64,000 nucleotides of DNA from Podarcis cretensis. Lineage: Eukaryota. Position 1 is the first letter of the stretch; each line of letters starts with the position of its first letter. Below are positions 1 through 35,044 of the stretch, one piece after another. The stretch is taken from the NCBI GenBank assembly GCA_951804945.1, contig OX638149.1, positions 86,056,001-86,120,000 of the forward strand, read 5' to 3'. The position numbers and the translations under genes are program-made. Below the pieces are notes generated by a model. The model ran no database searches and was not told the DNA's origin. It saw nothing but the letters and a program-made list of their open reading frames with translations.

Positions 1-25
1 GCTCTACCACTGAGCTATGGCTCTC
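1..25 (-). mobile_element. tRNA-derived SINE head fragment (Squam3-like)
   Basis: Reverse complement reads gccatagctcagtggtagagc (A-box); cut off by the window edge. Confidence 0.5.
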
Positions 26-2666
26 CCCCAATGGTTTCATGGGATTTTGTTGTTTCAGAAGATAAAAATACTTCAGAACAATTTGCAAAAGTATATGTGG
101 TAGGTATCCAGTCATAAACTAAAGTGGGGATCTGAGGTCATATAATCATTAAGATCAGTGGTTCCCTTTAGGGTAGCTTTTGTTAAGTGAATGGTGCCCC
201 AGACCCCCTGGATGGGTTATGCGGACTCCCAGTTGGGAACCACTGACCTTAGATAAACAGGAGCAGAGCAATGCCCTCGCTAACCTGTACTTATTATGGA
301 CATCTGCTTATACTAAACAAAAGCAGCCGCAAATTCTCATATATGGCCATGGTTAAAGCTATTGCTTATACTCTCTACCACTTGTTTTGTGCAGTTATAT
401 TTGATGCCAAACACATTAAAAAGAGGATTCAGGCTGTTCCTGAAGAATTATGGGAATTGCAGACTTATCTGGATGCTGAGAGCTGTTAGAATATCCCAAG
501 CACGTTTAGAGAATTGCATTTCATTGAGTTATTTATGAACGTAGCGGATGTTGTAACAGTTAAAAGTGTTTAGGTTATAGCACAGAAATGTTGCCATTCT
601 GTCTGCAGAAATCTAACCCATTATGCCTGCATATGAGAGATTACAATATTGACCATTGCCACATGCAGCCTAATCCTATGGCTGTCTATTCAGAAATAAG
701 GCTTACTGAATCCAGTGGGTTTTACTCCCAAGTAGGGATTGAGGGGGGATTCAATTTGCATTTGAAGGTGAACCTACCTAATTCACACTTTCTTGAATAG
801 TATGGAGACTGAAAGGGAGCCATCCTTTCAAATTTGCATTTCTCTGAATTTTGCAATGCAGTTCCACAACCAAGCAATGTCTACAAAATAAAGTGCCCAT
901 ATACAGGCATATATTAGTGAAAATAGACCGACAAAACACATTGCATTAGGGGAAATGACTTTGCATTAGGGGAAATGTGTATTGTCCAACAGTACTGTGC
1001 AACAGTACATGCACAAATGTGTATATTAGGACACATTTGCAACAAAAAGCTGATGCTTTTTCATGAGGACCTTTTATAAAAATCACAGACTGAAGTTGAG
1101 ATGTTGAGAACTGAAATTCATTTAAAAATGAGAAACTGAAACAGACAGATTTGCCCACACGCAGATTTGGCATTATATTGCGTATGAAACTGTGTGTCAA
1201 GAAACAATGGAAAACAGAAAGGAAGGAAGGAGGGAAGGAAGAAGGAAAGAAAGAAAAGGAAGTTGTCTGTCATAATGTCATTACCAGTACACAGTGCTGA
1301 TGATGTGAGGGATGTTCCTAGACTCTGGACAGACAGAAATTGGGAGTAAGCAGTGGAGTGAAATACTCCTTTACGATCCTCTTCTCTAACATCTAATCCT
1401 TGGCTACAATTCACATGAAGATGGGCAGATAATTTGAACACCTCATCATCAACACCATAATTTTATTATTTATACCCTGCCCATCTGGCTGGATTGCCCC
1501 AGCCACATGTGATAGATAGGTTGATTCCATAGTTGGTAGCCTTTGGAGGTGGTTGGAAGATGAGTGACAAAGAATGGGAGCACAATGCCACGATTTATGC
1601 TTCCCCTCTAGGAGGCGAGAAGTAGGACTGAGATGGCGAGGCTTTCCTTGCTGAACAGCTATGGGGAGTTTGGTATGTGACCTGCAGGGCATTGTGATAT
1701 GGAGCCTCTTGTCCCAGCCAACTCCAAGGAAGATTCCTCCAAATGCTGAAGATACACCTCTTTAGCCTAGCGTTTGGCACATGAGAAATATGCTTTCAGG
1801 GCTCACTCTTTTCCTGGTAACAGTTTTAACTGTTACCATTACTATTTATTAAATTTGTATACCACCCTTCATTTGAAGATCCCAGGGCAGTTCACACCAT
1901 AAAAATACAAAATACATAATAAAACAAAAATGAAAACAAACTAATAACCCCACTCAATAAATAAATGCCCCCTTATCCCCAAACCCTTAAAATATGTATA
2001 CTTCCATTGCTGCTCACAGTGCTAAACATACTCCTGCAGAAGATGAGCAGAAATAAAATTTTGCCAGCATTCTGAATACACCACATGCATGGGAATTTGA
2101 AGCACCATGCAGGTACTAGAAAGATGGAGCAGCCTAGACTGGTCTTAGCAAAAATAATACCTGCTTTTTTTCTCTCTAACCCAGGTTTCCCCAAACTAGT
2201 TTTGAATTTTAAATCGTTGTAATATGCACTGGCACCTGCTGCTGAAGGATGGGTAATAAATTCAGTCATCACCATTGTATGGGCATATGTTTTGAAATGT
2301 CCACCTTTTCATTTTCAGGGATTCTTAACAAAAGCAGCAGACTATTTATCTAATATAGTGCAGTATAGTGCAGTCCAGTGCAATAGGCTGGCTGTAGTGC
2401 AGAGTCTCAAGTCTCACTGTCCCAGTGTGACCCCACCTCAGCTTGTCTGTCCCTTCCTGTGCTGCGCACACATTTGCTGCAGCACACTCAGGCCCTATCG
2501 CAGCCCATGCTCCAGGGACACGCTGTGTAGCCGTGGAATCCATGATACTATTTATGAAGCATGTTTCCAACTTCCAGGCAGCATTTCCTAGATGTTCAAA
2601 CTGCACTCAGGACAAAGTTGCAAACAACAACCCCATATTCAGTTGGATGTACTTGGGGAAGTATAT

Positions 2667-2870
2667 TCCCACCACCCTTCTGAGTAATACCCCTCCCCAC
2701 CTTCTCACTATATAGAAGGGTCTGGTGACTTCTGTTTCAGTGTATCTGAAGAAGTGTGCATGCACACGAAAGCTCATACCAAGAACTAACTTAGTTGGTC
2801 TTTAAGGTGCTACTGGAAGGAATTTATTTTGTTTTGACTATGGCAGACCAACATGGCTACCTATCTGTAA
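2667..2870 (+). mobile_element. Penelope-like retroelement terminal-repeat fragment
   Basis: Typical PLE end (CTGAAGAAG...CGAAAGCTC...gttggtctttaaggtgctact...ggctacc), flanked by direct repeat ttggggaagtatat at 2653-2666 and 2871-2884. Confidence 0.75.
2742..2779 (+). ncRNA. Minimal type-I hammerhead ribozyme motif
   Basis: GUAU-CUGAAGA(A)-GUGUGCAUGCACAC-GAAA-GC-UC^AUAC. All core nucleotides are present, stem I is GUAU/AUAC, stem II is perfect and stem III is the palindrome AGCU. Confidence 0.7.
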
Positions 2871-4054
2871 TTGGGGAAGTATATAAGTTACACGGTATGT
2901 AGCTTATATACATACATAGAAATTGTTGCTCTGCTTTATTAATGCATGCTAAGATGGCAGTAGCGCAACCAAGTTCAGTTTTTCCTTGCTGCATTTAGGT
3001 GATAGCTGGATCTGCTCACATGCTCAGATGTTTAAAACCCTTAAGTTGTTATCAGTTCACTAATGTATGGGTAATCCACATTTATCTAAGACAAAGTGAT
3101 TTATTGCGGCAGACACTCTTGTGAACTAGAACCCGCTACACCGGGTTCAAGGTGTGCTAGCTGTATACACCAGGGACCAGGTGGTGAAAGATAAAACTGT
3201 GAAGCCAAAAAGGTCATGAAATGCAAGAGGAACCTCCTGTAACATTTCTGTGCAAAACTGGAACGTCCAGCCTCGAATTTGGTTTTTAGCCACCCACCAG
3301 GGGTTGGGGAACAGGTGACCTTGGGTGTTTTTGTTCCTCCTTTTCTTATGCATGTCACTGTGGTGGTTTCTAATCTCCTGGGTCAACCATGAGTAAATTG
3401 CTAAGCCGCTCCTTCCATCCATTGTTGTGCGGCTAACACCCTCCTTGGAGGAAGGGAGCACAAAGGTTATAAAGGAATAAATAATAAAAACGTGTGCTTT
3501 ACAGAGTTCTGGGAGCAGCGCCCCCCACCCCAGCCTTTAGGAAAGCCACTTCGGTTGCCCATCTGTAAAATGGGCATAATAAGGTTTGCTTAACCCAGCG
3601 AGAGTGAACGGGCTCCTCACCAAGAAAGCACTTGGCGTTCGTTAGAGGAGGGCTACAAAATGGTTAGCAACAGCCCCGCGTGTATCTGCCGCACGTCATG
3701 GGAGCGGATGGGCTCTTTCAGCAAGAAATTCCTCGGCTCCGGACCCCCCCCCCGCCCACCTCTCCCCTCCCCCGGGTGGAACCCCTCCCACCTCCGCTTT
3801 GCATAGCACTCCTCCGCCACCTCTGCGAGGCGCTGCCAGCCCCCTCGCGCCCATTACGCTCCCGCGCACACCCACCCCGGCGCTCACTCGCTCCCAGCCC
3901 CCGGGAGCGCCTATCTGCTTCGGTCAATGGCTGTGGGTGTCTCCGGCGCTGGCGAGTGCCTGCCCGCCTTGCCCCGATGCTCGATAAGCTGGCTCGCCTT
4001 ACTGGGCATGCCCGCTTCGTTTCTATATAAAACCCGCCGGAGTTAATCCCTGGA

Positions 4055-4166
4055 CATTCCCCGGCTCCTTCCACCCCGCCCCTCGCCATCGGATTGCGCT
4101 GGATCGCGCCGCTCGCCCAGCCTCAGCATCGCCCGCAGATCTGCACGAGAGCTGCGCTGCAACAAG
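4055..4166 (+). other. CARNS1: CARNS1 non-coding exon 1 (start approximate)
   Basis: Begins about 30 nt downstream of the TATA box, contains no ATG, ends at donor CAAG|gtaacg. Assignment to CARNS1 is inferred from position. Confidence 0.6.
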
Positions 4167-4363
4167 GTAACGGGGGCGGGGGGCGGCGGGGGTGGACGTT
4201 GGGTTTCTCCCCCAGCCCCGGGTGAGTCTCGGGCGCCTTTCCCGCCCGGAGTGAGGCCCGGATCGGGGGGTTGGGGGAGGGGGCGGCGCTGGCGCCCGGG
4301 GGTCGCGCGAGCGCAGCCTGTTGCTGGAGAGGACGGGGAAGAAAGGGGGTCGGCCGGGACCAC

Positions 4364-4400
4364 GTGTGTGTGTGTGTGTGTGTGTGTGCGCGTGTGTGTG
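4364..4400. repeat. (TG)n microsatellite
   Basis: Seen directly. Confidence 0.9.
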
Positions 4401-15860: not shown

Positions 15861-15866
15861 ATGATG
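15861..15866 (+). CDS. CARNS1: CARNS1 exon 2 coding part (micro-exon 15847-15866, ATG ATG)
   Basis: Pyrimidine tract ending ttgcag|CATC...ATGATG|gtgagt. Phase 0 joins LSLDQ, giving MMLSLD, similar to human MLSLD. Confidence 0.75.
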
Positions 15867-18800
15867 GTGAGTCTAGCCTTTCTTTGGCTTTCTTCTCCTC
15901 GCACCTTATATAGCTCCCATTTGGACCCTATGGTCCCTCTTTGGGGAAATTCAAAACAACAGTAATTCGAAAATGCAGCATATCTGAATTACTGTTCTGT
16001 AGAATTACTGACCCAGTAGAGTACAAAACACATTGGTTCAGTAGGCCTTTTTCTTGTCTGCTCCGCTTGGGGTGTTTTTGGTTTTGTTTCCAGGTACTTG
16101 TTCGTATGACCCATTTTTGTTGAACTCCCTCTGTTCTGGCCAAAATAGCCTCCTTTTTTTGTCTCTCATTGAGACATGTTTATTTTTGTAGCGGTTAAAC
16201 AACATGAAGAAAAAAAACCTGTTAGATGTAGTCTGGGCAACACCAGAACTTGGCTAGTACCATCTTGCCTTTCTATGTGAAAATTATTCAGTTCTCCCAT
16301 GGGTTCCCAGCCTCTTTAGTCCTCCATGACACTGAGGATAAGCTACTCAGCCAGCCAGTGCCACATTGCAGCAACAGACCCTTGAGCACTGTTGTTGTTA
16401 AAATGTCTATACTTCATCTGTGGATCATAGGGCAGTTTTCTCTCTCTCTCTCTCTCAATATAATGTAACATAATAGTAGATAGAAACAATAACCCCCCAC
16501 AGTTTAAAAGATCATAGATCAGTGATGGCCAAACTTGGCCCTCCAGCTGTTTTGGGACTACAACTCCCATCATCCCTAGCTAACAGGACCAGTGGTCAGG
16601 GATGATGGGAATTATAGTCCCAAAACAGCTGGAGGTCCGAGTTTGGCCATCACTGCCATATATAATTTAACTAGCCAAAGGCCTGGGAAAAGACCAATGT
16701 TCTCCACTGGCTACTGGCAGGAATGATCTTCTCCCCGTTTCTCTGGTGGGATCTGTGCTGTGGCTAAGTTCCTTCTCCTTTTCCAGGCCTATTTCCCAAC
16801 CCTTTGTCTTTCTCTTTCTGTAGCTGTCTCTGGACCAGATCCACACAGAGCCACCTCCAACTCCCAAGGAACTGGATTGGGCAGAACAGGGGTTTCTACC
16901 ACCCCTGAGCCCCTTGCGCTGTGCCTGGCGCCGGGATGTGCCTCTGGACTGCAAGATCAGCCCTGAGGATGCACAGGCCCGGGCCTGGACAGCTTACTAC
17001 TATGACCTGCTGCAGTGCACTTTGCAGCAGGAGGGGCTCCCAGAGACAATTGACCACACAAAGGAGCCTCGAACAGGTGAGTCCTTCTTTGGCTGGATGG
17101 CTGCTGTTTCTCTCCTTTAACCTGGAATGTGTCAGAGCATCTGCATTAATGGTAAATGTGATAGGTGGATCACATGGTGGCATCATCACCATTTCCACCT
17201 CAGTGCTTCATCTGAATCCATCTGTAGAATGACTCTAGGATATGGGCTGTGGCTAAAAGAGCAGAGTTAATTACCGTGATTCTATCTTCAAATCCCAGCA
17301 TGTGGAGTTCATGGAGCTGGGACATTAGGATTCCCAGATCTAGTATGAGAATCAGGTCACCAACTCATTTCTTTTCTTTCCCAGGGTTTGGACCATCAGA
17401 CATAACCATCTGTGTCTTGGGCTCTCCCACTTCATACTTGTCTGTGCTTCTGGAAGGTGGCAACCAGTGTCCTGGTGAGTTCCATCCTAATGCCATAGCC
17501 AAAAGCATTAGGTCGTCTCTTTGCCTTGGCTCTGCTGGGTGACTCATTCATCCTTACTCATGGCTGGTGAAGCACTGAGGAGTCCAGTGGTGTCCCACCT
17601 CACCTCACCCAGCAGGACCACAGGCAGTCAATGAATTTCCAAAGCTTTGCCTCCCACTAAAGCATCTTGCCAGTAAGAGGCAACTAGCTTTATTCCCTTC
17701 CTCCTCAATAGAGGAACTGAGCAGTGCTTTCCTCTAGAGGCAGACCAGGAAATCTGGAGAGGGAAGGAGAGAAGGGGCTGCCTTTTTGCTTCCTTGCCAC
17801 ACAGGTCCTTAAAATCCAATGGAGATGGTCTCCCAAGGTGACACCATTTAGCATTTTTGAAGGTCACTCTGGTGAGTCACACCCCATTTTTGTACATTCT
17901 CCTTAAAGGGAAGGAGGCTAAATGTCATTATCTTTGGTAACCAGGCACCATTAAACTCCAAATTGGGGGAAAGCTATCTGTGAGGGGCTGCCTAAAAAGG
18001 TTGCTTGAATCCTCAAGTCTTGACTGGCTGCTGGCTGGGATACTTCCTACTATTTTGTTTCTGAAACAGAAGCTGTGCAGCTTGAATTGTATTGAACCAG
18101 AGCTGCTTACCGTTTTGAGTTACCATACAGAGTTCCACCCCAGCTGGTGTCTGCAACTGAATTTATCCACTTCCTTTGGGGTTGATTCTTTTCTTTTAGC
18201 TTAAATTTCATCTTCAGGAACTTTTATCTCACTGGATTGCTTCACTTACCTGTATGCCAGCTGAAGGCACCTGGAATTAACTTTTGACACAGCAAGCAGT
18301 TGTATATACCTGCTAGGGCTGGGCAATAACTGGTTTTCAATATTGCGATATATCACCAGCTGAACATTGTGATATATCAATATATCATGATATCTGAAAT
18401 AAGGAAATACACAGAGGTGAACAGGACAATGTCCTGGCAACTGCTACTACTTAAGGGTCTAAAACTGATAAATGATGATACTATCAATCACCTCATGGTC
18501 ACTTTCAGCAGCAGGCAAGCCAAAATGCATCCAAATGACACTTTTGGTTTTGGGCTTGGCTACCAAATGGTGGTATTCAGGACAATCCAAACTACTGCGA
18601 TGAGTCATATTGAATACAAATCTGCTAGGTGGCAGCAGCAGCAGCAGCCTGGCAGTGGCAGAATCAACAATGGGGCGTGGGGGGGGGGGAGCAGCGGCAG
18701 CCTCGCAGCAGGGGCACAATAATCAGCAGCCTGTGAAGCCTCGTTATGGCTGTGGGCAGGGGGTGGCAGAAGTGGCAGCAGCCTGCAAGGCCTTGTTATG

Positions 18801-21800
18801 GCGGTTGCAGTAGTGGCGGCAGGAGTGGCAGAAGCAGAGGTGGCCTGCAAGGCCTTGCTGAGGCGGGCTGCCACACCTTCTGCCAACACCTCCCACTACC
18901 TCCAGGAGGACTTGCAGACCACTGTCAACTTCTTGCCACCATGGTGAGACCTTGCCACCATGATGAGACCTTGCAAGCCCCACTGCTTGTGTCGCTACTT
19001 GCAGGCTGCCACTGCTATTGCCGCCATCTCCCACTGCTGCTGTAAGGCCTCGCAGGATGCCACTACTGCTGTCACCTCCTGTCACTGCCCTGAGTCCCTG
19101 CAGGCCACCTCTGCTTCTGCTGCCAAATCCTGTCACCACTGCGAGGCCTTGCAGGCCAGTGCCATTACTGCTACTACTTTCCATCACCACCATGAGACCT
19201 CACAGGCCGCCACCTCCTGCTGTCACCTCAAGGCCTTACAGGCTGCTGTCACTAATGCCACCACCTCCCAATAACTGCTGTGAGTCCTTGCAGGTGGCCA
19301 CCACTCCTGCCACTGCCTCCCATCTCTTCCTCGAGTCCTCACAGTCTGCCGCCCCTAGTGCCGTCACTATCACCACCGCAAGGCCTTGCAGTCCACTGCT
19401 GTTTCTGCTGCTGCTGCTGCAAGGCCTTGCAGGCTGCCACCACTACTGCCACCGTTGTTGTTTTTTGCTGTTGTGAGGCTGTCCCGTTTGCCTCTGTATA
19501 GTTCAATCCTTATTTCAGACATTGTGGTAGATTGCAATATTTAGCTGGTGATAACACTGCAACATTGAGCAGGTGATATTATGAGATTTAGCTGGTGATA
19601 TTGTGAGCTTTAGCTGCTGAAAACATTTAGCTGGTGAGTTATCGCGACGAAAACCAGGTATCGCCTAGCCCTTAAACACATTGTGATTCGCGATATATTG
19701 CCAGCTCAAATACTATGAAGCAATTATCACAATGTGAACTTCAAACCAGTTTTGGACAATGCTTAATTCTTCATGTTTTGTCAATTTATTATGGAAAAGT
19801 TGCATGTGTTTAACACAATTATTTCCTCAAAACCGTACACTGGTTCAAACTGACCGGCTACATTATGAAGGTACTTTAAGTCCCAATGATTGTGACAGAC
19901 GAGCCATAATCATATGCAAATAGTGAACTGGGGTGTTGACTATGTAGCTGAAATAGGACTACTGAGAGATAAGAAGGGAGTGTCAGCATGCTCAGAGCAA
20001 GCCCAAGGTTTGCTGAAATAGAAAGAGAAACTTCAGGGGAGGAAACCCTAAGGGGACAAAAAATGCATTCAGCCCAGTGAGGACTCTGTATGCTCAGTAG
20101 CCCTTCTGAGTGTCTGGGTGTGGATAGGGTGGAAAACCAGAATGAGGAACCATGGAATGGAGTAGCTTGAAAGAAGGCCTGGCTGGTTGGCTGCCTGGAA
20201 CACTGAACAGCAGCACTTCACACAGCAGCATTTTGTCGCAGGTCACAGTTGTATGTATTTTATTTCTTTGATTGCAGTAGTCTGGTTAAAAGGGACAGAA
20301 GTGGGGTTTTTTTATAATAATAAAAAAAAAATAACAGGAATTAAACTTTGCTCCCTCCCGTCAATAAGCTCTGTCCCTTCAGGCACATTTCTCTCCCCTT
20401 TGGCTCACTTGCAGCATATGAGCTGGGCTAGAAGGAAATAGTCTCAAACAATGGAGTAAAGCAAGTTAAGACAAGGGAAATGTTTTTGCTTTAAAAATAG
20501 ACTTTCTTAATAGTTCAGGGAGACATCCGAATAAAATACCAGTGGATCTCTTGTCGCATCTAGTTTGGCTCAGACTGTGGACTCAAGCCATATAGATCAA
20601 CAGTATATTATTTGTCCCCAACCTTATGCTGCCAACTGTCATCTGTAATAAAGGGTTACAGTTTTAATATGTCACAACCTTTTGTTCAATACTGCCTATT
20701 TCACCAGAAGCATGCTGAGGTCTGGAAAGTGTGTGTTTGCTTACACACACGAACACAACCCACACACCGATGAAAAGGAGTCTTAAAAAGCAAGGCAAAG
20801 AAAATAGAAAAGATGCAATACATTATCAGGAAGACAGGTAGTAGTTTTTTTCAGAGGGATGAAGGTAGTTGCTTGAGATCTCCACTTAAAAGTATGTACA
20901 CTTATCACAATTCTGCCACTGGTAAGCAAGTTTTATACCAGTTTTGAAAACTTTTATAGCAAAATTTTCTTGTTTCAACCACAGAGTTTATACAGGTGTA
21001 AATAACATTCTGTAGCCAAGGGATCAGTGCCCCTTTCCCAAGCTTCAATTTTATTTGGAACTATGGCATGTGGGGAAATGGTTAAATATTCTTTCCTCCT
21101 CCCCTGGCTGCATCTCCAGTCACGATTGCCTTCCCCCTCCTCAATTGCAGTTTAGGGTGGAAAATAAAATAAATGGGTATAAAGGCAGCGCCATTTGGAA
21201 AAGGGAGGGTTGATTAAACTGATAAGAGTGGGTTCCTAGAGAGGGGAGATGGACCATAGAGAAGGAGATGGTTAGAGCACAATCTATGGAGGCCATTACC
21301 AAACTGTAGGCTGGAAGAGCTGGATTATGGGTTACCTATGCCTGAGGAAACGGTGCAGCTGTTCCATTGTGAGAAAAAGTAATGGAAGCTGACTTTTTGA
21401 TCAGTGGCATGCAAAAGCCTTGTTAAAAACAAGTCAACTCTATGCTCAGCATAGAGGCAGTTCCAGAAGATGAGGAATTTGCTATCACAATTCCTATACA
21501 AACAAAACAGGCAACTTGATAGATAAAAACAAACTATTGCTCTCTCAGCCTTATTGAAGTGACATGTGCACTGGATTGGATCTTTTTCCCCAACCCAGTG
21601 AAATTGGATTCAGTCATGACAAATTTTGATTTATATATCTGAGCCTGCAATATAATTATTGTATTTACAAGTACATTGTAACAGACCACTTCATTACAAA
21701 CCCAGTGCCTGAAATTCATCAGAATGCTGTCTCTAGCTGCAATCCTGTCTCAACCAAGCTATCTGGCTGTGCATGCTTCTTAGAGACTCTCTTGGGCAGC

Positions 21801-24800
21801 TGCTGCGCTGTTTTCCTGGCATTCTTCCCGTCTCTTCTCAGAGGCCGAGACGGGCTGGTGGTAACCAGAGCTCTTGTGGCAGCTGAGCTGCTCAGATTTC
21901 CCGCTGGCTAAAGTGCATATAGAAGAACAGGGCTGGAATAAACCAGAAGGTCAACTCTCCAACCTCCCACACCAAGGCACAATCCCTCCACCCTTCAGCC
22001 TCCCATAGAGCTTGGCAACTCTTTGTTCGGATCAGTGAATGCTCTGGCACTATTTCTGCTGGGATTCCGAGGGCTAATTCACACTTTAAAAGTGCCGGAT
22101 TCTCAATGGCAGAATACACATGCAACATTGGGTTCTGGGAAAGGATCAGGTACCATTTCTGTGTTCAGGGCATGGAAATCCAGCCTCTAAAATGCACAAT
22201 CTGCTTGCAATTAAGACTTCATCATATTTTTATGTTGCTGTTTAAACTAGAATTGTGTGTGTGAGAGAAAGAGAGAGAGAGATCGTTCAAAAGGTGACCT
22301 CTTTTGAAGCCAGACTGGACAGCTCCCAGCTGCAGGGAAAATTAAAGGTGTGGTTTTAGAGCAGGGCGTATCCAAATAATGCCCCCCTCCTTTTTTTATG
22401 TTCTGAAAGTGCTGTGATTTCCTAGAGCTAATAACTAGCCCAACCTATGAGCACTTGTAGAAAAGAAATTATTCAGTCTCTTTCCCAGCTGACAGATACA
22501 AGAGTGGCTTCTGTGGCCTCGTAGCTTTCAATCATCTATCTGCTAAGGTGGCAAGGAAATGAGTCTTAATAATGGAAAGGTCTGCACCCGAAAGTCTTCT
22601 GGTCCTGCAGTCCAGCTTGATGTCCAGAGCCCTCCATAGTCACTGTGTGATGAGAGGGCTCCTTCCTACTTTACCTCCACTTCTCCCTCTGTGTCTTAAT
22701 TCCGTGTGGTTCGATTCTGCAAGTATTGTCATGGTATGGGAACGTGGTGACCTCTGTACAAAGACAAGGTCTTTTGTGCTGTCCGACACATATACGTTTA
22801 GAAATAGATTTGCCCAGCATAGCCACTAATTTTGGTACCAGCTAAAATAGCAGTTCCCAACATGGCTGGTGAATCTCAAGCGTAAGCGTGTGACACGGGT
22901 GGGAATAGCTTTTTCCTTCTCTAGTGCAGTTGTTGCCCCGACTGTTAGGGGAGGGTTCTGCATGTGCTGCTTCCCTACAGCAGCAGAGTATGAGGAAAGG
23001 GTTCCCCCCCTCTGTTTAGGTCTTCTGACAGACTACAGTGCATGTACAAAGAAAGTAGGGTTGCATATGCTGTCCCCATTCAGCCTCTCTGTGTTAGGCT
23101 GACTGTACAGATTCTACAAATGCTGAACATACACACAGCTCCCTCCCTGCAACTATCGGGAATCCTGAGGTTCCACGTGATCAGTTTGGGAGACTGAGAG
23201 TAGGGACTGCTCTTTGGAAGGCTCAGTGGCTAGAGCATCTGCTTTGCATGATCCTTGAACCCACGTTGAATCCCCAGCATCTTCAGGTAGGGCTGGGAAT
23301 GTCCCCTGTCTGAATCTTAAAGAGCTATTGGCAGTCAGTGTTGTGACAATTTTGAGTTAGATGTAACAGTGGCCGGGCTTGGTATAAAGCTACTTCCTGT
23401 GTTCCATCTGAAAATGCCCAACGTCTAGAGGTAAAGTGAGGGCTGCATGCCTCTCGGAGTGCTGCTGACGAAGGAAGTGGAAAAGGGCAAAGTTTCCCTA
23501 AGGCCACATTCACACCAAACATTTAAAGCACTATGATGCCACTTTAAATAGTCATGGCTTGCTTCCCCCAAAGAATTCTTGGAGGTGTCATTTGCTAAGG
23601 CCCGCAGGCATGGCCAAACTTGGCCCTCCAGCTGTTTTGGGACTACAATTCCCATCGTCCCTGACCACTGGTCCTGTTAGCTAGGAATGATGGGAGTTGT
23701 AGTCCCAAAACAGCTGGAGGGCCAAGTTTGGCCATGACTAGCTAAGGGTGCTGAGGGTTGCTAGGATGTCCCACTCCCCTCCCAGAGCTACAATTCCCAG
23801 AGTGGTTAAACTATAGATCCCTCTTCACAGGGAACTCTGGCATTGTAGCTCTGGGAGGGGAATGGGTTCTCCTCTCAAAACCCATAACAAACTACAGCTC
23901 CCAGAATTCTTTTGGGGAAGCCACTTCTGATTAACATGGCATCAAAATGCTTCAAATGTATGGTGTGAATGCGGCCTAAGAGAATTAAGAACTCTGCATC
24001 CCTTTAAATTAGATTAGGTATGAGGGACAGTGGATATGCCTCAGGTTACTGCTGCCCGAGGTGAGACATTTCTGAAGGATGGAGCAGCTGCGTTACTGCA
24101 AGGCACTTCAGTGGAGGTGAAGTGGCTTATAGTGCTGCTGTGTGAGGGAAGGTTTTTTCCTCTTTGCCTCCCTGCTGCCAGAGTATGAGAATTTGGTTAC
24201 AAAACTGGAGGATTTTGAAACTCTGTCTTAATGGACCAAAACTGATAATCTGACAGCTCAGTTCCAGGTATGGCTGGCTTAGAAGATAAGAAGTGCTTCT
24301 CCCCGCCCCCAGTGCTGTGGGTTAACACACACATAATATCTCAGTAAGGGAGTGTGTGATGGTGAAGAGTTTCTCTTAGTTTACTTTTACTTTGCATGAT
24401 GAATATCTTTTCTGTGGGTCAAAGGAAATGCCTCACCCTTCCATCTGTTGCCGTGGAACTGGAGGTAAACAAAAGGGTGTGGGTTTAGTTTCAGATAGCC
24501 AATGCATAAAATGAGAAACCAAAACAAAGAAGCATATATATATCCACACAGAGGCAATAACCTTCAGCTTTGTAAAGTAATGCATTTATAGTTGAAGGTT
24601 TTGTCTTATCTAAGTATATCTTCTATATTTGGGGCATGCTCCCCTCCTCAACTTTGGATTGAATACCACATTACTCACTAGTTTCGGACGGGGGGGACGG
24701 ACCCCTGAAAGATTAAAATGCATTAAAGATTTAAAAGATTAAAATTGGGTTGTGTTCCAAAGAGGGTGACCAGAATGGTGAAGGCTGGTGGAGAAGGCTG

Positions 24801-27800
24801 GGTGTATTTTGCCTGGAGAAGATTAAGGGGAGACATGATAGCAGTTTTCAAATACCTTGAGGGCTGTCACACAGAAGATGGAGTAGACATGTTCTCTGTT
24901 GCTCCAGAGGGTGGAAATTGCAAGGAAGCAGACTTCAGCTAAGCATTAGGAGACATGTCCTGATGCAGTAAAAGCTGTTGGGACAGTGGAGCAGACTTGT
25001 CTTGGGAGATGGTGGACTCTTTCTTCACTGGAGGTATTTAAGCAGAGGTTGGACAGCCATCGGCCAGACTCTGCAGTGGGGTGCACTAGAAGTCCTCCAA
25101 GTTCCCTGCCAAGCCTGTGGCTCTAGAGCAGACTGGACAACCTCTGTGGCCCTCCAGAGGGTTGCTGGGACTTCAAATCCCATCACTCCCAGTCTGCATT
25201 GCTAACAGAGGTGATGGGCATTGTACTTCAGCAACATCTGGAGAGCCACTGGTTCCCCCATGCCTATTCTAGAGGGTAAAATTTGACTTGTCACCTCGGT
25301 AAGCCCTAAAAGCACTGCCATTATGAACAGACCAGTTTTGCTAATGTGATATAAATGGAGCATTAGTGCCACTGGCTACTGTTGGGGAGGAAATGTAGAA
25401 GAGGTGCTAATGATGTCACAACAGATGATTCCATTTCCTTTCCCCTGTTCAATCTCTCTCCATTCATAGGTGACTTATGGGGAAGCGTGACAGAGTAACA
25501 CTTTCCAGAGAGCCAGAATAAGATATACTCCCGCTTAGTTGGCTCCAAGGCAGTTGTTGGGGCAGATAATCAGGGTGTTGACTGCACCGAGAGCATGTAA
25601 GGCGCCAAGTCTCCCAGCTGCTGCTGATTACTCTGACGCGACTGTCGCACAGGCTGCCGCATTTTGGCAACCCCTCCCAGAACCTTTAGTAGGGGAGAGA
25701 TTTTTGCCACCCTGGTCCAGCTCAGGGCACGTTTCTCTGCTGTGTGAGTCTTATCTTGCACACACTCATGGGCTGGGTTTGCCCTCTGCCTTCTCCTCCC
25801 CAGGTAACATGCTGCTCTGCCTGTCGCCAGCCTGGCTCTCAAAGGCACCATCAGAATCCCACCCGGGAGAGTCGTCCTTGCTGGTCTTCAAGGCCGTGAC
25901 CTTTGAACTCGGTGGCCGCACAACCCTGGAAGAGTTTGCGCCCCCGCGCCGTGTCACCTACTTTACTGGCTGCTTTGGGCCCTGCAAGGTGCAGGGCCAG
26001 TCGGCAGCAGAACTGGCCCGAGACCTCGACTGCCCCACGGGGGGCTCAGGAGAGCTAGCTCGCCTGCTGGAGGACAAGCTCCTGACCCGCCAGCTGATGG
26101 ACCAGCAGGCATGCGTGGCTGTGCCCCCCACCCTGGCCTTCACCTTCAAGCGCCCGCTGCCTCTACGAAGTGTGACAGAGGAGCAGCGTGTCCGCATGGT
26201 GGAGCTGAGCGGCCGTGAGGGGCAGGACAACCTGCTGCAGGAGGAAATAGCAGCCTTCCTGCAGAGTGGCGCCATGGAGTCCTATAGCCAGGTGAGGAGC
26301 CCTGAACCTGAGATGGAAAGCTACAAACAGGAGGTTTGGAAAGGTGCGTTATTATATGGCAAGAGCAGTGCACTTCCTGTATCCGGGACAGGGGTCGCCA
26401 ACTGATGGCCCTCCCATCAGCCCCAACTAGCATGGCCAGTGGTCAGGGTGGGTGCAACTTACAGTAAAGCAACATGTGGAGGGCCTCAGGTTCCTCACTC
26501 CTGGAGTTTGAGCCAAGATAATCCTCTGAGCCTAAGTGTTGTCTCTATTGTGCTTCCTATAGGTGGTGGTAAAACCATCAGGCTGGCGCTGGAACGGAGC
26601 CCAAGCTGTGTCATTCCATGCTAAGTCAGAACAGGGATGTGTCCTTCAAGCTGTCCTCACGCTGCTGGAGACCCTGGAAGAGGAAGAGAGCATTTTGCTG
26701 GAGGCCTTCATTCCCACTGCTCATGTGGTCCGGCCTGGCCCTCCTGACACGAACGGCTCCCCATGTAAGGGATATATTTTCATCCCTTCTCACTGAGGTC
26801 GGTCCACATAATGAACTGTCCTCCAAATTAGCACCCACAATTATGATAGTTTACTCCATAAGTGAGTCTCTCCCATTGACTGCTTCATGTCATCTCTTGC
26901 CCACTCAAGAGCATTTGAAAGAGTTGCCTCGCACCAGCTATTTCCTGACGGGATCTAAGTGGGCAAAAGATGGCATGGGCAGATTGGGGAAGCTACCATA
27001 TTGGAATCTGATAATTCTTCAGGAGCATGTTGCATTGCTGATTTTACTCCAGACTCTGGGCCTCTTCTGATGACCTGTTTACTGAACATTCATCCCAAAT
27101 TGCTTGCGCAAAGCTTATGCAGAGGTTTGATTACATCTGGTCTTTATTGACAAGTGTTCTGAGTTGTTTATGGGGTGGTTATACATCAAGGGCAATTTGT
27201 CCTGCATTCATCCCCAATTGGCATTTGGGGTATATACATGTCTTTCCACCGGTCATTTGTTTATCCCGCACTGTCACTTTCCAAACCACAGAAAGTATTT
27301 CTTTTAAAAGTGCCTTTGTTGTGCTAAGCCAATAGAGCCCTTTGGTACCTTGTAAACGTGCAAGGCTAAAGTTCCAGCATGCACTTGAATCCCTCCTGCA
27401 AAATGATGACACTCTGGAGGCACCCCTTCTTCTTTTCACTCCCCTCCACATGCCCCACTCCTATCAATTTGCCTCTCTGATATATTCTATCTCCCTCTCC
27501 CTCCCTCTCCTACATCTCCGATTCCAGGCAATTCATCTCCACAGACCAATCTAGCAGTCCGAATATGTGCTGTTGTCTGCAGATCCCGAAAAGACCAGCC
27601 TCTACTGAGCAAGGTAACCAAAGCCCAGAGCTCCACTACAGATTGGGGGAAGAAATCCCAAGGAATCCTCACTGGCAGAAAAATTGTAGCCCTGTACTGT
27701 AGTCCGTTCCTCTTACCTGTTTTCAGGGGAACAAATTGTTGGTTGAGGGCAAGGAAATAAGTGGCTGTGCCCAGTTTTAAACTGTTTTGTGAGGAAGACA

Positions 27801-30800
27801 CACAAACACTGATTGGTATTGGTAGATTTGGGTGATCTTTTGACTCCAAAATAATGTCTTGTTTGGAACCAGGCTAGCTTATTTTATCAACTGTCCCACT
27901 CACAGTCTCTAACCTTCACCTGGAAAGACTCCAGAAATCATAGATCACGGCACAAAATCCCACAGACACCTTGCATGCACACAGCCATAACCCACTGTAT
28001 GAACAGAAGAAAGTAGAGAAATTCCAATTTGGACTGTTGGTATGGAGATGTTAAGACTAACTGGAGGAACAGATGCTTGAATGTCAGCAGCCCAGAGAGA
28101 CTGCATGCATTTTTTGGGTTCTCTTTCAGGTGGTGTGTGGTGTGGGCCGGGCAGATAAGCCCCTGAAGCACCAGGCCACTGTGCCCCAGACTTTGGAGAG
28201 CAGCCTGCGTCAGTGGGGACTAAAGGATGAGGCCCAGATTGCAGCCATTCATGCCCAGATAAAGCAGAAGGCTGAAGCAGCCATGAAGGCCTTCATGGAC
28301 ATGGAAGCTGGCCTGTCAGTTGAGCAACGAGGTGGTCGCCGAGCACAAACCGACATCATTGGTGAGTTGCCCTGTCAAGTCATTATGGGGCCCTGCACTT
28401 TCGATGCCCAGAATAGCATGAGGCTATCAGCATTCCTCAAGCCCAGGCTCCATCAGCTGTGGGGCAGCAGTGCAAAGCAGCTGCACTTAGCTATGCACCA
28501 GCAAGCAAAACTCAATTTTAATCAGCTATGGGGAAGTCCTTGCCAAGCCCTTGTTGTGTTCAGAAATCCTTGCACTGGCAGAATGATTGGCAAAGTGTGG
28601 TGCTGAATTCCTCCTTTTGAACCAGTGGCAGGTTGGGACCCTGAAATCCCACAACCCCAGAGATGCATACACCTTTTTGTCCCGGCCTCTGATGTGGACA
28701 TGAAACTGTCTTAAGTAATGATTCCCCAATATCTTCAGTGTATGTTTCTGGCAGTGCAAGAACCAATCCCTTAAGTTTCTGCAGCAGAGTGATGGAGCCT
28801 GAGTTGCTATTGTGGAAACTTCTGCTGTAATGCCTTTTGTGAACTCTTTGCCTCAGTAAAATTCTTGAGCAACAGATTCCTATGGCAATCATTCTTCCTA
28901 AAACCAAACAAAAAAATGACAAACCCAGTTGCCGCCCCTTAGTTATGTTTTGATCTCATTGACCAGCTTATCAGAAACCATTAATTCTCATTTAGATTTA
29001 TTTCCCACTGTATGACGTGTACTGTACTAAACTTTTTCATCCTCTCTCACTCACTGCCTAATGGCAGTGGCCTGCAGATGTACAAAAGCTGCATGCACAC
29101 TCTTCTCCCCTTGCTTATTTTATTTATTGATTTCTCACCCCTTGACCATTCTGACTGGGGCTAATGGGAGTTGGAGTCTAACAACATCTGGAGGACCACA
29201 GGTTCCCCATACTTGGATTAATCCACTGTTCTTAGTGCACCTTTGAGGTTTCTTCTCTTTCATTCCTTTTCTGTCTTTATGACACATTTGGCCCAATAGT
29301 TCATTTCGATGAGAGGTGTTCTCCATTGGCCCAATGTCTAATCCTCCAGCCTTTACGGAATGAGGGGCTGGTCCAGCTGCTCCTGGGAAGAGGGTTGTTT
29401 CCCGCTGCCAACCTCTAAGGCAAGAGAGCCAGGAGCAGCTGCAAATTTGGCCTGACAGCAGGCAAGGAAACTGGCGGGGCGAGAGGTACAGCAGCAGTGG
29501 CACAACTTCTCAGTGTGTGCAGCAGTACAGTGGTACCTCGGGTTAAGTACTTAATTCGTTCCAGAGGTCCGTACTTAACCTGAAACTGTTCTTAACCTGA
29601 GGCACCACTTTAGCTAATGGGGCCTCCTGCTGCTGCCACGCCGCCAGAGCACAATTTCTGTTCTCTCTTTTTTTTATATAAATAATTTTTATTAACAGGC
29701 CAATCACATCACATTATCCAAATCACATTAGTTCCATATTATACAGCCAAATTTTAAATTTTGTTGGGGGTACCCGTACATCAAGTTCCGCACGAGTCCA
29801 AAACTCCGGACAAGTCCAAGCATCACTTATATTACTGCTTTAATTAGACAGTTCTATCCAGTTCGATCCGGATAGTCCTTTATTACTTTCTTTCTCTTCT
29901 TGTTGTTATCGTATATTCCTTTCTTTGCGATCTCTGATGATTTTCACAAGCAGATTGAAAACAGGCGTCTCTGTGTGGGTTTTGTACTCCTCAAAGATCA
30001 TATCGCTCAGGAACAGCCTCTGTTCAACACTTCCATAAACAAAATTAATCTTCGGTCTGTCCTTTATTTTTCTCAGGCTTGCCAAATAAATCAAATGAGT
30101 GAGTCAGGGGGCTCTGTCAGGTCAAGTTTGCGTTCCAACATTCCTTCTCTTTCGAACGATCCTGATTCTCTCCCCCTGTCCTTCTTTCTCCAGCAAGCCT
30201 GTCTTGGCAAGTTGCCATTTTTTAACTGCGTCATAAAAATTTTCCTCTTTCTCACTGTTCAATCCTCTATCCTGTTATAATCCATCCCACACAGTTCTTG
30301 GATTCCTGCTTGTGTTTAATAAAAACTCAATGATCTTATTTCTATCTGGGGTGAAGAGTTATTAATATAATATCGTGCAAAGAGAAAAAAAGTTTTTTCC
30401 TCCACCCCCCCCCCTTCGTTCCATACATACAGTCTCCTAGTGGTGATTCATCAGAAGATTTACTTATCCATCCGTCACTCCCGGTCACAGAGATCCATTA
30501 ATCAGCAGTCTTATCCTCGAGCATTACTTGATGTATGTGCTTCAGCTTCATTTCCAATCATTTGTTTCCAATTATAATTCCGAGCTGAAGCAACCAGCAC
30601 GCGCTAATTGGAATCGGCGTCAGGAAGATCTGACTCCACCGAGGGCTCGTGCCAAGTGTTCAGCACCCCCATCTCACGGATCTGGGGGTGCATTGTGAAC
30701 ACCGCTGGCAAGGCAGTGCCCCCTCATCTCCTGGGGGGGGGGAGGAAGACTGCATACTTCCCATAGCAGCCCCTTAATTACCTCGTATGGGTCAGAGAGA

Positions 30801-33707
30801 TGTTATTGTCGGCCATCTTCCAACGCGCCACCTGGTGGCCCCCCTCTGTTCTCATCCTGAAGCAAAGTTCTTAACCTGAAGCACTATTTCTGGATTAGCA
30901 GAGTCTGTAACCTGAAGCGTATGTAACCTGAAGCGTATGTAACCCAAGGTACCACTGTAGTGAAAAGTGCAAATTCCACATTAGGAATTATTAGGGAAGG
31001 AATTAAAAATAAAATAAATTTTTGGAGGCTAATTCTGTCATGTTGGCCCTGTAAAAAGACCATGTTCAGAAAGCAGGGTGGGATGCTCAGTTATCAGATC
31101 CTAGTGGGTGACAGAAGAGTACTGCTGCCTTGATGGTTTCCTGTGGGGAGGCGTGTGGTTGGCAATCCATGTGAAATGGGATGCTGGATGAGGTGGACCT
31201 TTTGAGCAGATCCTACCAGGGCTGCTCATACGTATAATGAAGGAGCTCTTACTTCAGTGGGGTTATTTGTTCCATCAACTCACCCTTGGGATTCGGCTAA
31301 TGGTTGAGCTGACCAGAAGTTCAGTGATCTTCAGCCACATGTTCTTGATTGACAGGGCCTCCTTTGCTTCTCCTTTCTCCAGGTGTGGATTTTCTCCTAA
31401 GCTCAGAGGAACAGGTGCTGCAGCTGGTGGCCCTGGAGATGAACGCGCAGCTGTGCCTAGAGACCTGCTCCGTCTTCGAGTCCATGGGCCGGGTGGTGGG
31501 GGCTCCAGCGGGCGAGGCAGCACGCCCCCTGGTGGAGACGATGATGCGTCGTGCGCAGTGCCACCTGATGGAGGGCAAACACGTGTTGGTCATTGGGGCC
31601 GGCGGAGTCAGCAAAAAGTTCGTCTGGGAGGCAGCCAGGGACTACGGGCTAAAAGTAAGATGCGGAAACCGGAGCCATGCAGCCCCCCACAGGCTGCAGG
31701 ATGGACTAACTAGAGCAGCACCCCCCTAAAGCCCCCGTCCATATAATATAAACTTTATGGGTGCCATCTAAGCACAGAGAGGGGAGAAAGGCACAGTCCC
31801 CCTGCCAATCAAAAGGGCTCACCATTGTGCTATGCATTTACGCCAGTGGAGCTGGCCTGCTTGCTGCATTGCTGCTCCCCGGTCATGCTATTCTTGAGGC
31901 TGGCCATCTTATCAGGATTACTTCGAGCAGGGCATCGGACAGCCCAGTCTGGAACCAAGTTTTAAGTTGGACGAGTCACTGGGGATGGAAGTGAGTTCTT
32001 GAGGATTTCAGGCGTAGCCAGGTCTGCTTCTTTTTAATCACATCTTGCCTCCATTTAAAAATGGTAGGAAGCAAACATGAGGCACGACTGTTGTGCGGGT
32101 TCTGGATCCCCAAGATCCCAGTCTGCCAAGCAGCACTTGCTTTCTTGTTCCTAGCCTTATATAGCAGCCAGGAGGCTTCAGAGGCTTAAGCTTCTTCTGT
32201 CACTGCTTCTCCACCACAGTGTGCAGCTGTTTAAAGTCACAGGCTAAAGGAAATGGGATGGAAGCCTTACAGCTGAGGCAGCAGGGATACATAAAAAGAG
32301 CTTTTTCAATGAAATACCCCTGCTTTGCCTCTCCCATCCCTTGTATCATTATTTATTAGACTTATTAGTCACTTGTTAACTAAAGGTCTCCAAGTGACTT
32401 TCATTCTTACCTTTCTAAACATTGTAGTTTTGTGGCTTCTCCAAACTCAGAAGAGAAACCCTGTTCCGTTCTGGGTGCTGGGACATAACTGTGCTGGTTA
32501 TTGTCTGCTTTGGAGGACATGGGTGTACAGTGCAGTTTCAAGAATGAACTGGGTTATCCTGTTTCCAGGACCTCTAGATTACCTTTGGAGCCACAAAGGG
32601 GGCCCCCTCTCAATAGGCAGGAGACTGACAAGCAGAATAGATATGGGGATAGCATGTGTGGGGAGGGGTGGTGGTAATGTTGTAATGAAATGAAAACTAA
32701 ATTGGTAGGAGACAGCTGGCGGTTTAGCCAGCAGCAACTAGTCCCATTTTTCTTTCAAAAGCCCAAGTGCCTTGATGCCACTTTATTCCTCTGAGGGCTG
32801 AATTTGCCCCTGTTGGAGTCTTGCTGCCATTTTGCAGTTCAGACCCTGAACAAAACATGTTGACCAGAGACTATGTCAACAGCTACGGTCTTCACAATGA
32901 GACAGTCTGTATGCTTTACTCTCCTGGAAAATGGCTGTGCTCCGGAGTTACTTTAAAGTGGTGGGGGGGGGGGAGCCTGCTTCTTGGATGTCCCCATGTC
33001 TCTGGAGTTGCTATATGTCCCTGTTAAAATCATCAGCAGTGAAACTGTTAAGGCTGCCTTTCCCATCCACTTGGCTTATTTTTTGTTTAGTTATTTACAT
33101 AAGCTATTTATATTAAGTGGTGTAACATAAGACTTAAAGGCACACAGTGGATATGCTTATGGCTCACAAAGCCCAATGAGCTGAATGGAGGCACCTCCCT
33201 GATGCAAACTGAATCCAGTTTAAGGAGGCACAGTGGACACGCAGAGCAGAAGAGTGACTCCCTTTTGCACACACACCCATGCAACCACCTGGCTCAGCTT
33301 TTTGTTTCCGCCCTCTTGCCAGCCATGGTCCTTCCCCAGCACCACCTCCTACTACACCTAGAGGACAATGTCTCCTCATTCTAAATTCTCTTGTTGCTGA
33401 AGCAGGCATGTAGAGAATGATCAGATCCTGTCTCCCTCCCCTGCCACCAAACCTGTGGGTTCCAATGGAAGCTGTCCCACTAAGAGCACAAATGGGATGC
33501 CTGCAAGATGGGGAGTTGCTGCCCATAGATTGGAGCCTACTTCCCAGGGGGCTGTTGTGCCGTGCCTGGTCCCAAGGAGCTGTCCTTCTCTGGTACTGTC
33601 AGTAGTGATGCATCTCTGATTTTTCTCCCATCTTCTCTGCATCTCTGCCCTTCTGTGTCTGCCCTTCCTTATTCCCCATCCCTGCTCCCACTCCTACCTC
33701 TCTCCTA

Positions 33708-33751
<44 letters not shown>

Positions 33752-35044
33752 CATCTCCACCCCACCCCCCTCTTTCTTTCTCGCTCTCTTTCTGATCTTT
33801 CCCATCCCCAGATCCACCTGGTGGAGTCCGACCCCAACCACTTTGCCTCCCAGCTGGTGCAGACCTTCATCCACTATGACACCACAGACCACAAGAGGGA
33901 TGAAGAGCATGCCCAGAGGCTGCTGGGGCTTGTGCAGGAGCGGGGCTTGCATCTGGACGGCTGCCTCTCCTACTGGGACGACTGCATGGTCCTGACGGCA
34001 CTGGTGTGCGAAGGGCTGGGCCTGCGCTGCAGCTCCCCGACAGCCATGCGCGTGGCCAAGCAGAAGAGCCGCACTCACCTGCACTTGCTGCGCCGTCGCA
34101 AAGAGGGGGCTCGCTGGCCCTCGGCAGCGCTCTATGCCGTGCCCTGCTGCCACCTAGAGAGCCACACGGATGTGGAGCGGGCTGCGAGCCACATCAGCTT
34201 CCCTGGGGTCATGAAGCTAGAGTACGGGGCCGGGGCTGTGGGGGTCAAGCTGGTGGAGGATGCACAGCAGTGCCACCTGCACTTTGACAAGATCTCCAGG
34301 GACCTGCAGGATGATTCAGACCACCCGGGCATCGGGCTGGGCTGGGGCAACGCCATGCTATTGATGGAGTACGTCTCCGGCACTGAGCACGACGTGGATC
34401 TGGTGATGTACGAAGGGCGGATGCTGGGGGCTTTTGTCTCTGACAACGGGCCCACCCGGGTGCCCAACTTCACTGAAACGGCAGCCTGCATGCCCACCTG
34501 TCTGCCCCCTGACCGTGAGGCGCAGCTCATCCGCGCTGCCTACCAGTGCTGCTTAGGCTGCGGCCTCACCGACGGCGTGTTCAACGTGGAGCTGAAGCTG
34601 ACCGCGTCCGGCCCCAAGCTCATCGAGATCAACCCCCGCATGGGCGGCTTCTACCTCCGCGACTGGATCCAGGAGATCTACGGTGTGGACATCATGCTGG
34701 CCTCCGTCATGGTGGCCTGCGGGGTGGTCCCCCTCCTGCCTGCTCGCTCTCGCCCCCGCATGCACCTGGTGGGAGTGATGTGCTTGGTGTCGCAGCACCT
34801 GCAGGCCCTCAAGTCCACGGCCAGCCTGGAGACGCTCCAGGCCCTGCATGAGCGTGGCGTCATCCGCCTCAACCTGCTCGATGACGAGCTCGTGTCCAGC
34901 GAGTACGAGGAGCCCTACTGCAATGTGGCTTGTGCCAGCTCTAGCCGCCGCGAGGCCTGCCTCAAGCTGCTCGGCATCTGCCAGGTGCTGGGCATCGACT
35001 CCCCACACTACCCTGTGGCCCACTTCCTCTCGCATTTCAAATAG
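15861..35044 (+). CDS. CARNS1: Carnosine synthase 1 (ATP-grasp ligase), spliced CDS of 953 aa
   Basis: join(15861-15866,16824-17076,17385-17474,25804-26291,26563-26764,27528-27613,28130-28361,31383-31654,33812-35044) = 2862 nt. All introns are GT-AG with consistent phases. Recognisable CARNS1 motifs: ARAWTAYYY, GNMLLCLSPAWL, GAGGVSKKFVWEAARDYG, ESDPNHFASQLV, IEINPRMGGFYLRDW, C-terminal YPVAHFLSHFK. Confidence 0.95.
16520..16655. mobile_element. Palindromic hAT-type MITE
   Basis: Near-perfect hairpin cagtgatggccaaact...agtttggccatcactg. 8-bp flanks tcatagat/ccatatat match 6/8. Confidence 0.8.
16824..17076 (+). CDS. CARNS1: CARNS1 coding exon (LSLDQ...EPRTG)
   Basis: tag|CTG...ACAG|gtgagt. 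Encodes WRRDVPLDCK and ARAWTAYYYDLLQ. Confidence 0.9.
17385..17474 (+). CDS. CARNS1: CARNS1 coding exon (FGPSDITICVLGSP...GGNQCP)
   Basis: ccag|GG...CCTG|gtgagt, 90 nt, phase 1-1. Confidence 0.9.
18314..19673. mobile_element. hAT-like non-autonomous DNA transposon with internal minisatellite
   Basis: TIRs tagggctgggcaataactggtttt / aaaaccaggtatcgcctagccctt match 20/24. Subterminal (tt)agctggtgat repeats are inverted between the two ends. Confidence 0.65.
23215..23407 (+). mobile_element. Squam3-like SINE
   Basis: gctcagtggctagagcatctgctttgcatg...caggtagggctggga...ttcctgtgttcc. Confidence 0.65.
23502..23976. mobile_element. PIF/Harbinger-like palindromic MITE
   Basis: TIRs ggccacattcacacca / tggtgtgaatgcggcc with TAA on both flanks. 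Confidence 0.7.
23605..23740. mobile_element. Palindromic hAT-type MITE nested in the Harbinger MITE
   Basis: Same family as 16520-16655; gctaagg is repeated on both sides. Confidence 0.75.
24750..25062 (+). mobile_element. CR1 LINE 3' fragment
   Basis: Degenerate ORF2 C-terminus RLRGDMIAVFKYLEGCH, then aagcagaggttggacagccat. Confidence 0.8.
25804..26291 (+). CDS. CARNS1: CARNS1 coding exon (GNMLLCLSPAW...ESYSQ)
   Basis: cag|GT...CAG|gtgagg, lies within ORF 25539-26405. Confidence 0.93.
26563..26764 (+). CDS. CARNS1: CARNS1 coding exon (VVVKPSGWRW...)
   Basis: tag|GTG...CCAT|gtaagg. Encodes LLETLEEEESILLEA. Confidence 0.9.
27528..27613 (+). CDS. CARNS1: CARNS1 coding exon (NLAVRICAVVCR...PLLSK)
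   Basis: ccag|GC...AAG|gtaacc. Absent from the ORF track; translated by hand. Confidence 0.9.
28130..28361 (+). CDS. CARNS1: CARNS1 coding exon (VVCGVGRAD...EQRGGRRAQTDII)
   Basis: ttcag|GTG...ATTG|gtgagt. Confidence 0.92.
29528..30958 (+). mobile_element. Tc1/mariner MITE family A, split by a retro-insertion
   Basis: Left half 29528-29665 and right half 30845-30958 are colinear with the 9709 copy. Confidence 0.85.
29666..30844 (-). mobile_element. Short L1-like non-LTR retroelement (1.18 kb)
   Basis: 9-bp TSD tctgttctc at 29657-29665 and 30845-30853. Minus strand has AATAAA plus an A-tail at the 3' end and GGGG...AAGATGGCCG at the 5' end. Confidence 0.7.
31383..31654 (+). CDS. CARNS1: CARNS1 coding exon (GVDFLL...ARDYGLK)
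   Basis: ccag|GT...AAA|gtaaga. Contains GAGGVSKKFVW. Confidence 0.93.
33713..33748. repeat. (CT)n microsatellite in a long polypyrimidine tract
   Basis: Seen directly. Confidence 0.9.
33812..35044 (+). CDS. CARNS1: CARNS1 last coding exon (C-terminal ATP-grasp domain)
   Basis: ccag|ATC CAC CTG GTG GAG. Matches ORF 33821-35044 and ends HFK*. Confidence 0.97.
   Translation: MHLVESDPNHFASQLVQTFIHYDTTDHKRDEEHAQRLLGLVQERGLHLDGCLSYWDDCMVLTALVCEGLGLRCSSPTAMRVAKQKSRTHLHLLRRRKEGARWPSAALYAVPCCHLESHTDVERAASHISFPGVMKLEYGAGAVGVKLVEDAQQCHLHFDKISRDLQDDSDHPGIGLGWGNAMLLMEYVSGTEHDVDLVMYEGRMLGAFVSDNGPTRVPNFTETAACMPTCLPPDREAQLIRAAYQCCLGCGLTDGVFNVELKLTASGPKLIEINPRMGGFYLRDWIQEIYGVDIMLASVMVACGVVPLLPARSRPRMHLVGVMCLVSQHLQALKSTASLETLQALHERGVIRLNLLDDELVSSEYEEPYCNVACASSSRREACLKLLGICQVLGIDSPHYPVAHFLSHFK

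Follow-up and report, generated by a model that had tools for sequence, protein, structure and literature searches.

The question raised by this locus is why a hammerhead ribozyme motif lies upstream of CARNS1, on the strand of that gene, and whether it acts on its neighbour. We analysed the whole stretch of 64,000 nucleotides that contains it (the window). Very probably the hammerhead is a ribozyme motif belonging to the terminal repeat (pLTR) of a young, high-copy Penelope-like element (PLE), and the 204-bp copy at this site is a recent 5'-truncated insertion that sits beside CARNS1 as a likely neutral passenger.

The motif letters given in the initial annotation were confirmed at window positions 2742-2779 (+), both by direct re-reading and by a descriptor match. 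The minimal type-I descriptor matches exactly once when both strands of the 64 kb are scanned, while 100 dinucleotide-preserving shuffles average 0.03 matches with its loose form and 0.0 with its strict form: the motif is genuine and not a chance occurrence. It combines the core CUGANGA/GAAA/UH and stems I and II with the lack of a stable stem III that defines the minimal type-I form, and it has the traits of PLE minimal hammerheads (a bulged base before stem II, the pair G10.1-C11.1 and a palindromic stem III remnant). Judged by these structural features, it is the minimal hammerhead of an EN+ PLE. This form of hammerhead goes undetected by Rfam 15, the check that had been proposed for it: a search of window positions 1-8000 at E ≤ 10 gave six matches, none of them to a hammerhead family. 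Descriptor matches across 175 loci (557 kb, some overlapping) all belong to one family; 155 are identical, and compensatory pairs are absent. The features of the locus are collected in Table 1.

Table 1. Features in and around the insert (window coordinates).
Feature	Position	Strand	Basis or remark
Left target-site duplication copy, 14 bp	2653..2666	+	exact repeat; empty-site contigs
5'-truncated Penelope-like copy	2667..2870	+	last 75 nt of 3' UTR/pLTR, hammerhead, tail
TATA-like box of pLTR, inferred core promoter	2709..2718	+	sequence
Inferred 5' end (likely start site) of element RNA, hammerhead first base	2740..2742	+	junction counts
Minimal type-I hammerhead	2742..2779	+	predicted cleavage between 2775 and 2776; 6,322 exact genome copies
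Stem I	2742-2745/2776-2779	+	4 bp
CUGAAGA core	2746-2752	+	
Bulged A	A2753	+	precedes stem II
Stem II	2754-2767	+	first pair G2754-C2767 = G10.1-C11.1
GAAA core	2768-2771	+	then GC
Palindromic stem III remnant AGCU	2771-2774	+	
UC (UH site)	2774-2775	+	
PLE tail, optional 3' extension	2837..2870	+	bimodal 3' ends of sampled copies
Right target-site duplication copy	2871..2884	+	exact repeat; empty-site contigs
Probable CARNS1 core promoter and non-coding first exon	4024..4168	+	TATA 4024, donor GT 4167, CpG island; inferred
CARNS1 coding exons, neighbour outside element	15861..35044	+	protein match, tblastn

The metazoan PLE minimal hammerheads of Cervera and De la Pena (2014, PMC4209133), as the available part of that paper describes them, are similar in their type I core and 4-bp stem I, in the bulged base before stem II, the G-C first pair and the palindromic 15.2-16.2 region, and also in their setting, as they lie in the pLTR, mostly as lone, truncated copies, and occur by the thousand in genomes that include those of reptiles. 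Unlike those hammerheads, which are highly variable, the copies described here are near-identical (42 of the 59 sampled spanning copies are exact); stem II together with its loop is a perfect 14-nt palindrome, whose MFE fold has 5 bp and a 4-nt loop; and we place the likely RNA start at the ribozyme, a placement not found in the available part of PMC4209133. The most frequently mutated position in the sampled copies is the equivalent of 2768, the G of GAAA (9 of 59), which fits CpG decay in a core that is unprotected after insertion.

The PLE origin proposed initially, with the hammerhead in the terminal repeat, is borne out by continuity with an RT and GIY-YIG reading frame, by a tandem array and by a target-site duplication (TSD). 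Exact copies of the hammerhead 38-mer number 6,322 in the genome (one per 238 kb), and the reversed control has none; the insert itself has 939 candidate matches, the 40 scored being 93-100% identical. Homologues have a common 3' end and a variable 5' extension into an ORF with RT and GIY-YIG, with no fixed boundary at 2667. Twenty RT-containing loci were examined. Locus L055 is a tandem array of two identical units, with hammerheads 3,011 nt apart and two open frames of 925 codons, and L056, whose hammerheads are 3,016 nt apart, has one further open full-length frame. The 925-codon protein (P0001) matches RVT_1 with an E value of 1e-11 and has a C-terminal GIY-YIG domain at the curated cut-off. 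The family has the features of an EN+ PLE: a single RT and GIY-YIG ORF, tandem pLTRs with a hammerhead, a tail and inverted partner, and a TSD with an empty site. The intact tandem copies, with their identical units, suggest that this young, high-copy family was active recently. The L055 array, a partial tandem trimer at L055:1978-8894 (C14), has an apparent 13-bp TSD around its whole length, which fits a single insertion event from tandem or circular RNA.

Between RT and EN, the protein carries a linker motif CX4CxxC (residues 785-793). A linker Zn finger of the form CX2-5CxxC is described for the Neptune clade, with a reduced form in Nematis, in the accessible text of Craig et al. (2021, 10.1101/2021.04.23.441226), and by its linker motif the element would be of the Neptune/Nematis type of EN+ PLE. 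The linker motif also sets the family apart from PAc (Poseidon_Ac) of Anolis carolinensis (Frangieh et al. 2024, PMC11167929), which, according to the portion of that paper available, is likewise a lizard PLE in tandem repeats, with two 3' end classes that define a tail and an ORF start near the hammerhead; PAc, however, belongs to the Poseidon clade and its ORF starts inside stem II, whereas the ATG here lies 65 nt 3' of the cut site. Our literature search returned no paper on this lizard PLE family, which the supplement of PMC4209133 or Lunse et al. may already include.

Both the 204-bp insert and the 14-bp direct repeat of the initial annotation proved exact. The window copy differs from a full-length tandem copy at 4 of 204 nt and retains just the first codons of the element ORF: its tail holds the first ten, with a likely ATG at 2840 (the ORF start being read in tandem copy L055), and tblastn gives a match at window 2795-2875. 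Two CCAAT motifs of the pLTR, read in L005 at the window equivalents of 2655 and 2663, fall just 5' of 2667 and so are missing from the window copy; the TATA-like box is retained. The target site contains a 14-bp inverted repeat (93%, 5-nt spacer) at 2879-2911, overlapping the right TSD copy. Directly before stem I, a pyrimidine tract and CAG (2725-2741) resemble a 3' splice site, as reported for Drosophila Penelope; no spliced copies were seen for this sequence.

To describe the ends of copies, we took a 22-mer that lies immediately 3' of the cleavage position and has 8,493 matches in the genome, and sampled the first 100 consecutive ones, all from the first 9 Mb of one contig. Their 3' ends are bimodal, 55 being short and 45 long, and the window copy falls in the long class. 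An inverted partner is present at 63 of the 100; an optional tail of 30-40 bp and an inverted, 5'-truncated partner are known PLE anatomy in what is accessible of PMC11167929, 10.1101/2021.04.23.441226 and PMC3846280. By a simple search, a clean TSD of at least 9 bp was found at 4 of 33 solo copies, and the tidy TSD of the window copy is not the family norm.

Non-LTR retrozymes also carry a type I hammerhead of PLE origin, and the insert might be read as the monomer of such a non-autonomous element (a non-LTR retrozyme or a SINE-like unit) and not as a truncated PLE. The insert is short, and retrozymes are described as descending from the pLTRs of PLEs and leaving monomers behind (10.64898/2026.07.22.740005, available text); in addition, some contigs of sequencing runs X4 and X8 return from 2779-2824 to about 2742. 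As defined in the same text, however, non-LTR retrozymes consist of short non-coding units in tandem, with two or more consecutive hammerheads, whereas the locus has a single unit, the solo end of a coding element, and no head-to-tail repeat. The insert is not a retrozyme array, and the monomer reading, which is largely refuted by the variable 5' ends of the homologues, is very unlikely. The returning contigs of X4 and X8 suggest that short head-to-tail hammerhead repeats occur elsewhere in those genomes, and these could be retrozyme-like.

The age of the truncated PLE insertion can be judged from relatives. Contigs from four public sequencing runs (X4, X5, X8 and X11) were compared over window 1900-3500. 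In X8 and X11 (organisms D and E), contigs run directly from 2652 into 2871; the gap amounts to 218 bp, with 14 letters that can be assigned to either side. These are empty sites, and they prove that the 14-bp direct repeat is a true TSD. In X5 (organism B), contigs span both insert junctions and the site is filled, and X4, which has the same species label as the best-matching runs, gave no contig across the flanks. The search of sequencing runs listed no RNA run among the matches, which says nothing for or against expression. The flanks differ from the window at 16 of 1,407 positions in X5 (~1.1%, filled), 17 of 1,382 in X8 (~1.2%, empty) and 31 of 939 in X11 (3.3%, empty), so the insertion is younger than the split represented by a flank divergence of roughly 1.2% at the X8 empty site. 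With the insert missing in two of the three informative runs, the hammerhead is not a conserved host ribozyme. The insert is common to at least two organism labels, for which drift or selection could each account.

The 5' ends of the sampled copies bear on where the element RNA begins: 21 of the 100 lie at 2739-2742 and 37 are spread over 2743-2774, with none at 2776 and one each at 2777 and 2778. The pile-up is 31-33 nt downstream of the TATA-like box. Junctions were counted genome-wide at 2739, 2740, 2742, 2776 and 2778. The 21-mer from 2742 has 8,915 exact matches; the base before it is the template T in 6,432 of them and a non-template base in the other 2,483, where G is found in 1,618 (65%); the control position 2778 has 39 non-template junctions genome-wide (7 with G). 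Before 2740 there are 1,590 junctions, with T preceding in about 80 of the first 100 listed, and before 2739 there are 347, with G in about 15 of the first 100 and no G excess. Flanks at 28 of 30 G-class loci are not element sequence in register (they are non-element or inverted), and at L155 and L172 the TSD stops 3 nt before the element, which indicates that the extra G is not target-derived. For L1, an untemplated 5' G has been interpreted as copied from the cap (PMC9341517, available part), and TATA/Inr-like motifs have been noted in the rotifer pLTR (PMC3846280, likewise). The junction counts make it likely that the element RNA begins at the first base of the hammerhead; our literature search found no report of this start-site and extra-G pattern for PLEs.

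Several observations run counter to a simple cap reading: in 18 of the 30 loci the G follows a T, the 2740 class has an excess of T, at least 17 of the 30 loci are junctions with an inverted partner, at which bases can be gained through microhomology, and the internal promoter of Drosophila Penelope is described as TATA-less in the available text of PMC2377424. The extra bases could instead come from terminal-transferase activity where the RNA ends, or from template switching at stem I. Four other accounts were rejected. A splice acceptor at 2740/2741 does not fit the heterogeneous flanks, the main class at 2742 or the T that precedes the 2740 class; a canonical initiator A2739 as main start has only 347 junctions, without G excess; a T-to-G subfamily variant is at odds with the non-element or inverted flanks at 28 of the 30 G-class loci; and fold-back of stem I accounts for one of the 30 (L169). 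A 5' junction at 2754 was also seen in 6 of the 100 sampled copies, where inverted partners share the stem II palindrome.

RNA that had been cut left no excess of copies: ends at the cleavage-product start 2776 number 58 genome-wide against 39 at the control position, 36 of the 58 being preceded by T, as expected from C-to-T decay, and none occurs among the 100 sampled copies. All copies that span the cut site, the window copy included, would derive from RNA left intact, or religated, at that point, and the likely template is uncut RNA. The lizard family would in this respect be like the anole PLE, for which, in the sections of PMC11167929 available, uncut RNA is the main substrate, cleavage needs the element protein, no RNA-seq reads end at the site, and there are a tail and internal priming. 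In the schistosome minimal hammerhead, monomer cleavage was absent and dimer cleavage low in vitro (PMC4209133, available part). In the folding calculations the active dimer has -11.1 kcal/mol and a pair of monomers -13.6, and the stem II palindrome is predicted to form a competing RNA duplex at -30.6; the active dimer lies ~19 kcal/mol above this duplex in a folding model that leaves the tertiary contacts of the hammerhead core unscored. The predicted pairing probability of stem I is 0.33-0.38 in one tested RNA only, that starting at 2742, and 0.00 in all three contexts with upstream sequence.

The window copy could have arisen as follows. The element protein would have nicked the target and primed reverse transcription internally on an element RNA produced by read-through; the priming position would be the far tail site, which lies about 95 nt 3' of the cleavage position. 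Reverse transcription would have run through the uncut hammerhead and ended 75 nt past the point where RNA starts in that repeat, and the 14-bp duplication would be the outcome of repair. Since the window copy extends 75 nt past the inferred start, it is likely derived from the downstream repeat of a read-through RNA. In the cycle of the element, the hammerhead would likely be the first 38 nt of pLTR-started RNA, and cutting would be rare, requiring the element protein to help it dimerise with the next hammerhead of a tandem transcript, 3,011 nt further downstream. A bolder reading, which we think has about an even chance of being right, is that the hammerhead begins at nucleotide +1 of a capped RNA from a TATA-type pLTR promoter, that thousands of short genomic copies arose as run-off cDNAs, primed at the internal tail sites, extended as far as the cap and finished with an untemplated G, and that RNA cut by the ribozyme hardly ever serves as template. 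On this view the ribozyme would act as a self-decapping switch, withdrawing RNA from use as template or circularising tandem transcripts, and a countable fossil record of this choice would be preserved in the genome.

As to the neighbour, the initial identification of CARNS1 was correct: its last exon has 99% identity to lacertid carnosine synthase 1, its exons map to window 16824-35041 by tblastn, and it is because of this identity that the host is judged to be a lizard of lacertid type. The promoter, said to lie ~1.3 kb downstream of the hammerhead, is inferred here at 1.25 kb, within a region (3501-5000) that has a CpG o/e of 0.70-0.93. A search of the ESM Atlas with a CARNS1 exon returned generic ATP-grasp clusters only. 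A weak tblastn piece of CARNS1 at window 17285-17482 (47% identity, residues 51-119) overlaps a true small exon and is probably alignment run-on. Upstream on the same strand lies a TBC-domain gene, which we take, by human synteny, to be TBC1D10C; its last apparent coding frame and first AATAAA are about 34-36 kb from the ribozyme, with 27 AATAAA hexamers between.

The initial annotation had suggested that RNA reading through from upstream could pair with another copy, cleave itself after C2775 and in this way limit read-through toward CARNS1. In favour of this, the + strand carries an intact core, thousands of identical copies are possible partners in trans, and minimal hammerhead dimers cleave somewhat in vitro (PMC4209133, in the part available). 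This is nevertheless highly improbable: the insert is missing from two close relatives, the upstream gene apparently ends about 34 kb off, stem I is not predicted in any context with upstream sequence, the active dimer is disfavoured relative to the duplex, and no second same-strand hammerhead copy exists in the window or the 30 kb upstream of it. The nearest upstream copy is a truncated member of the same family ~22 kb away on the - strand (L033; C1, about 86,036,650-86,037,320), and it is broken by a short simple repeat. Slightly less remote, yet still improbable, is a role for the insert as a small upstream promoter, whose + strand RNA would start with the hammerhead and enter the CARNS1 promoter, there creating an alternative 5' end or transcriptional interference. 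The TATA-like box and inferred start site are intact on the CARNS1 strand, 1.25 kb from the CARNS1 TATA box, and the RNA starting at 2742 is the one in which stem I is predicted; against this, the CCAAT motifs are cut off and the insert is absent from relatives. A position near a promoter is, moreover, expected by chance from 6,322 copies: if 18,000-22,000 genes are assumed, random placement would put 75-92 of them on the strand of a gene and no more than 2 kb upstream of it. A role of this copy for CARNS1 is not supported, although, with the box and start site kept on that strand, it may have a local effect.

For CARNS1, the hammerhead is of little significance, being one among thousands of young transposon ends, and the insert provides a clean presence/absence marker for lacertid phylogeny. 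For the element family, the copy-end counts from a single genome back the in vitro finding that the template is uncut RNA, and the likely start site at the ribozyme touches on the in vivo role of PLE hammerheads.
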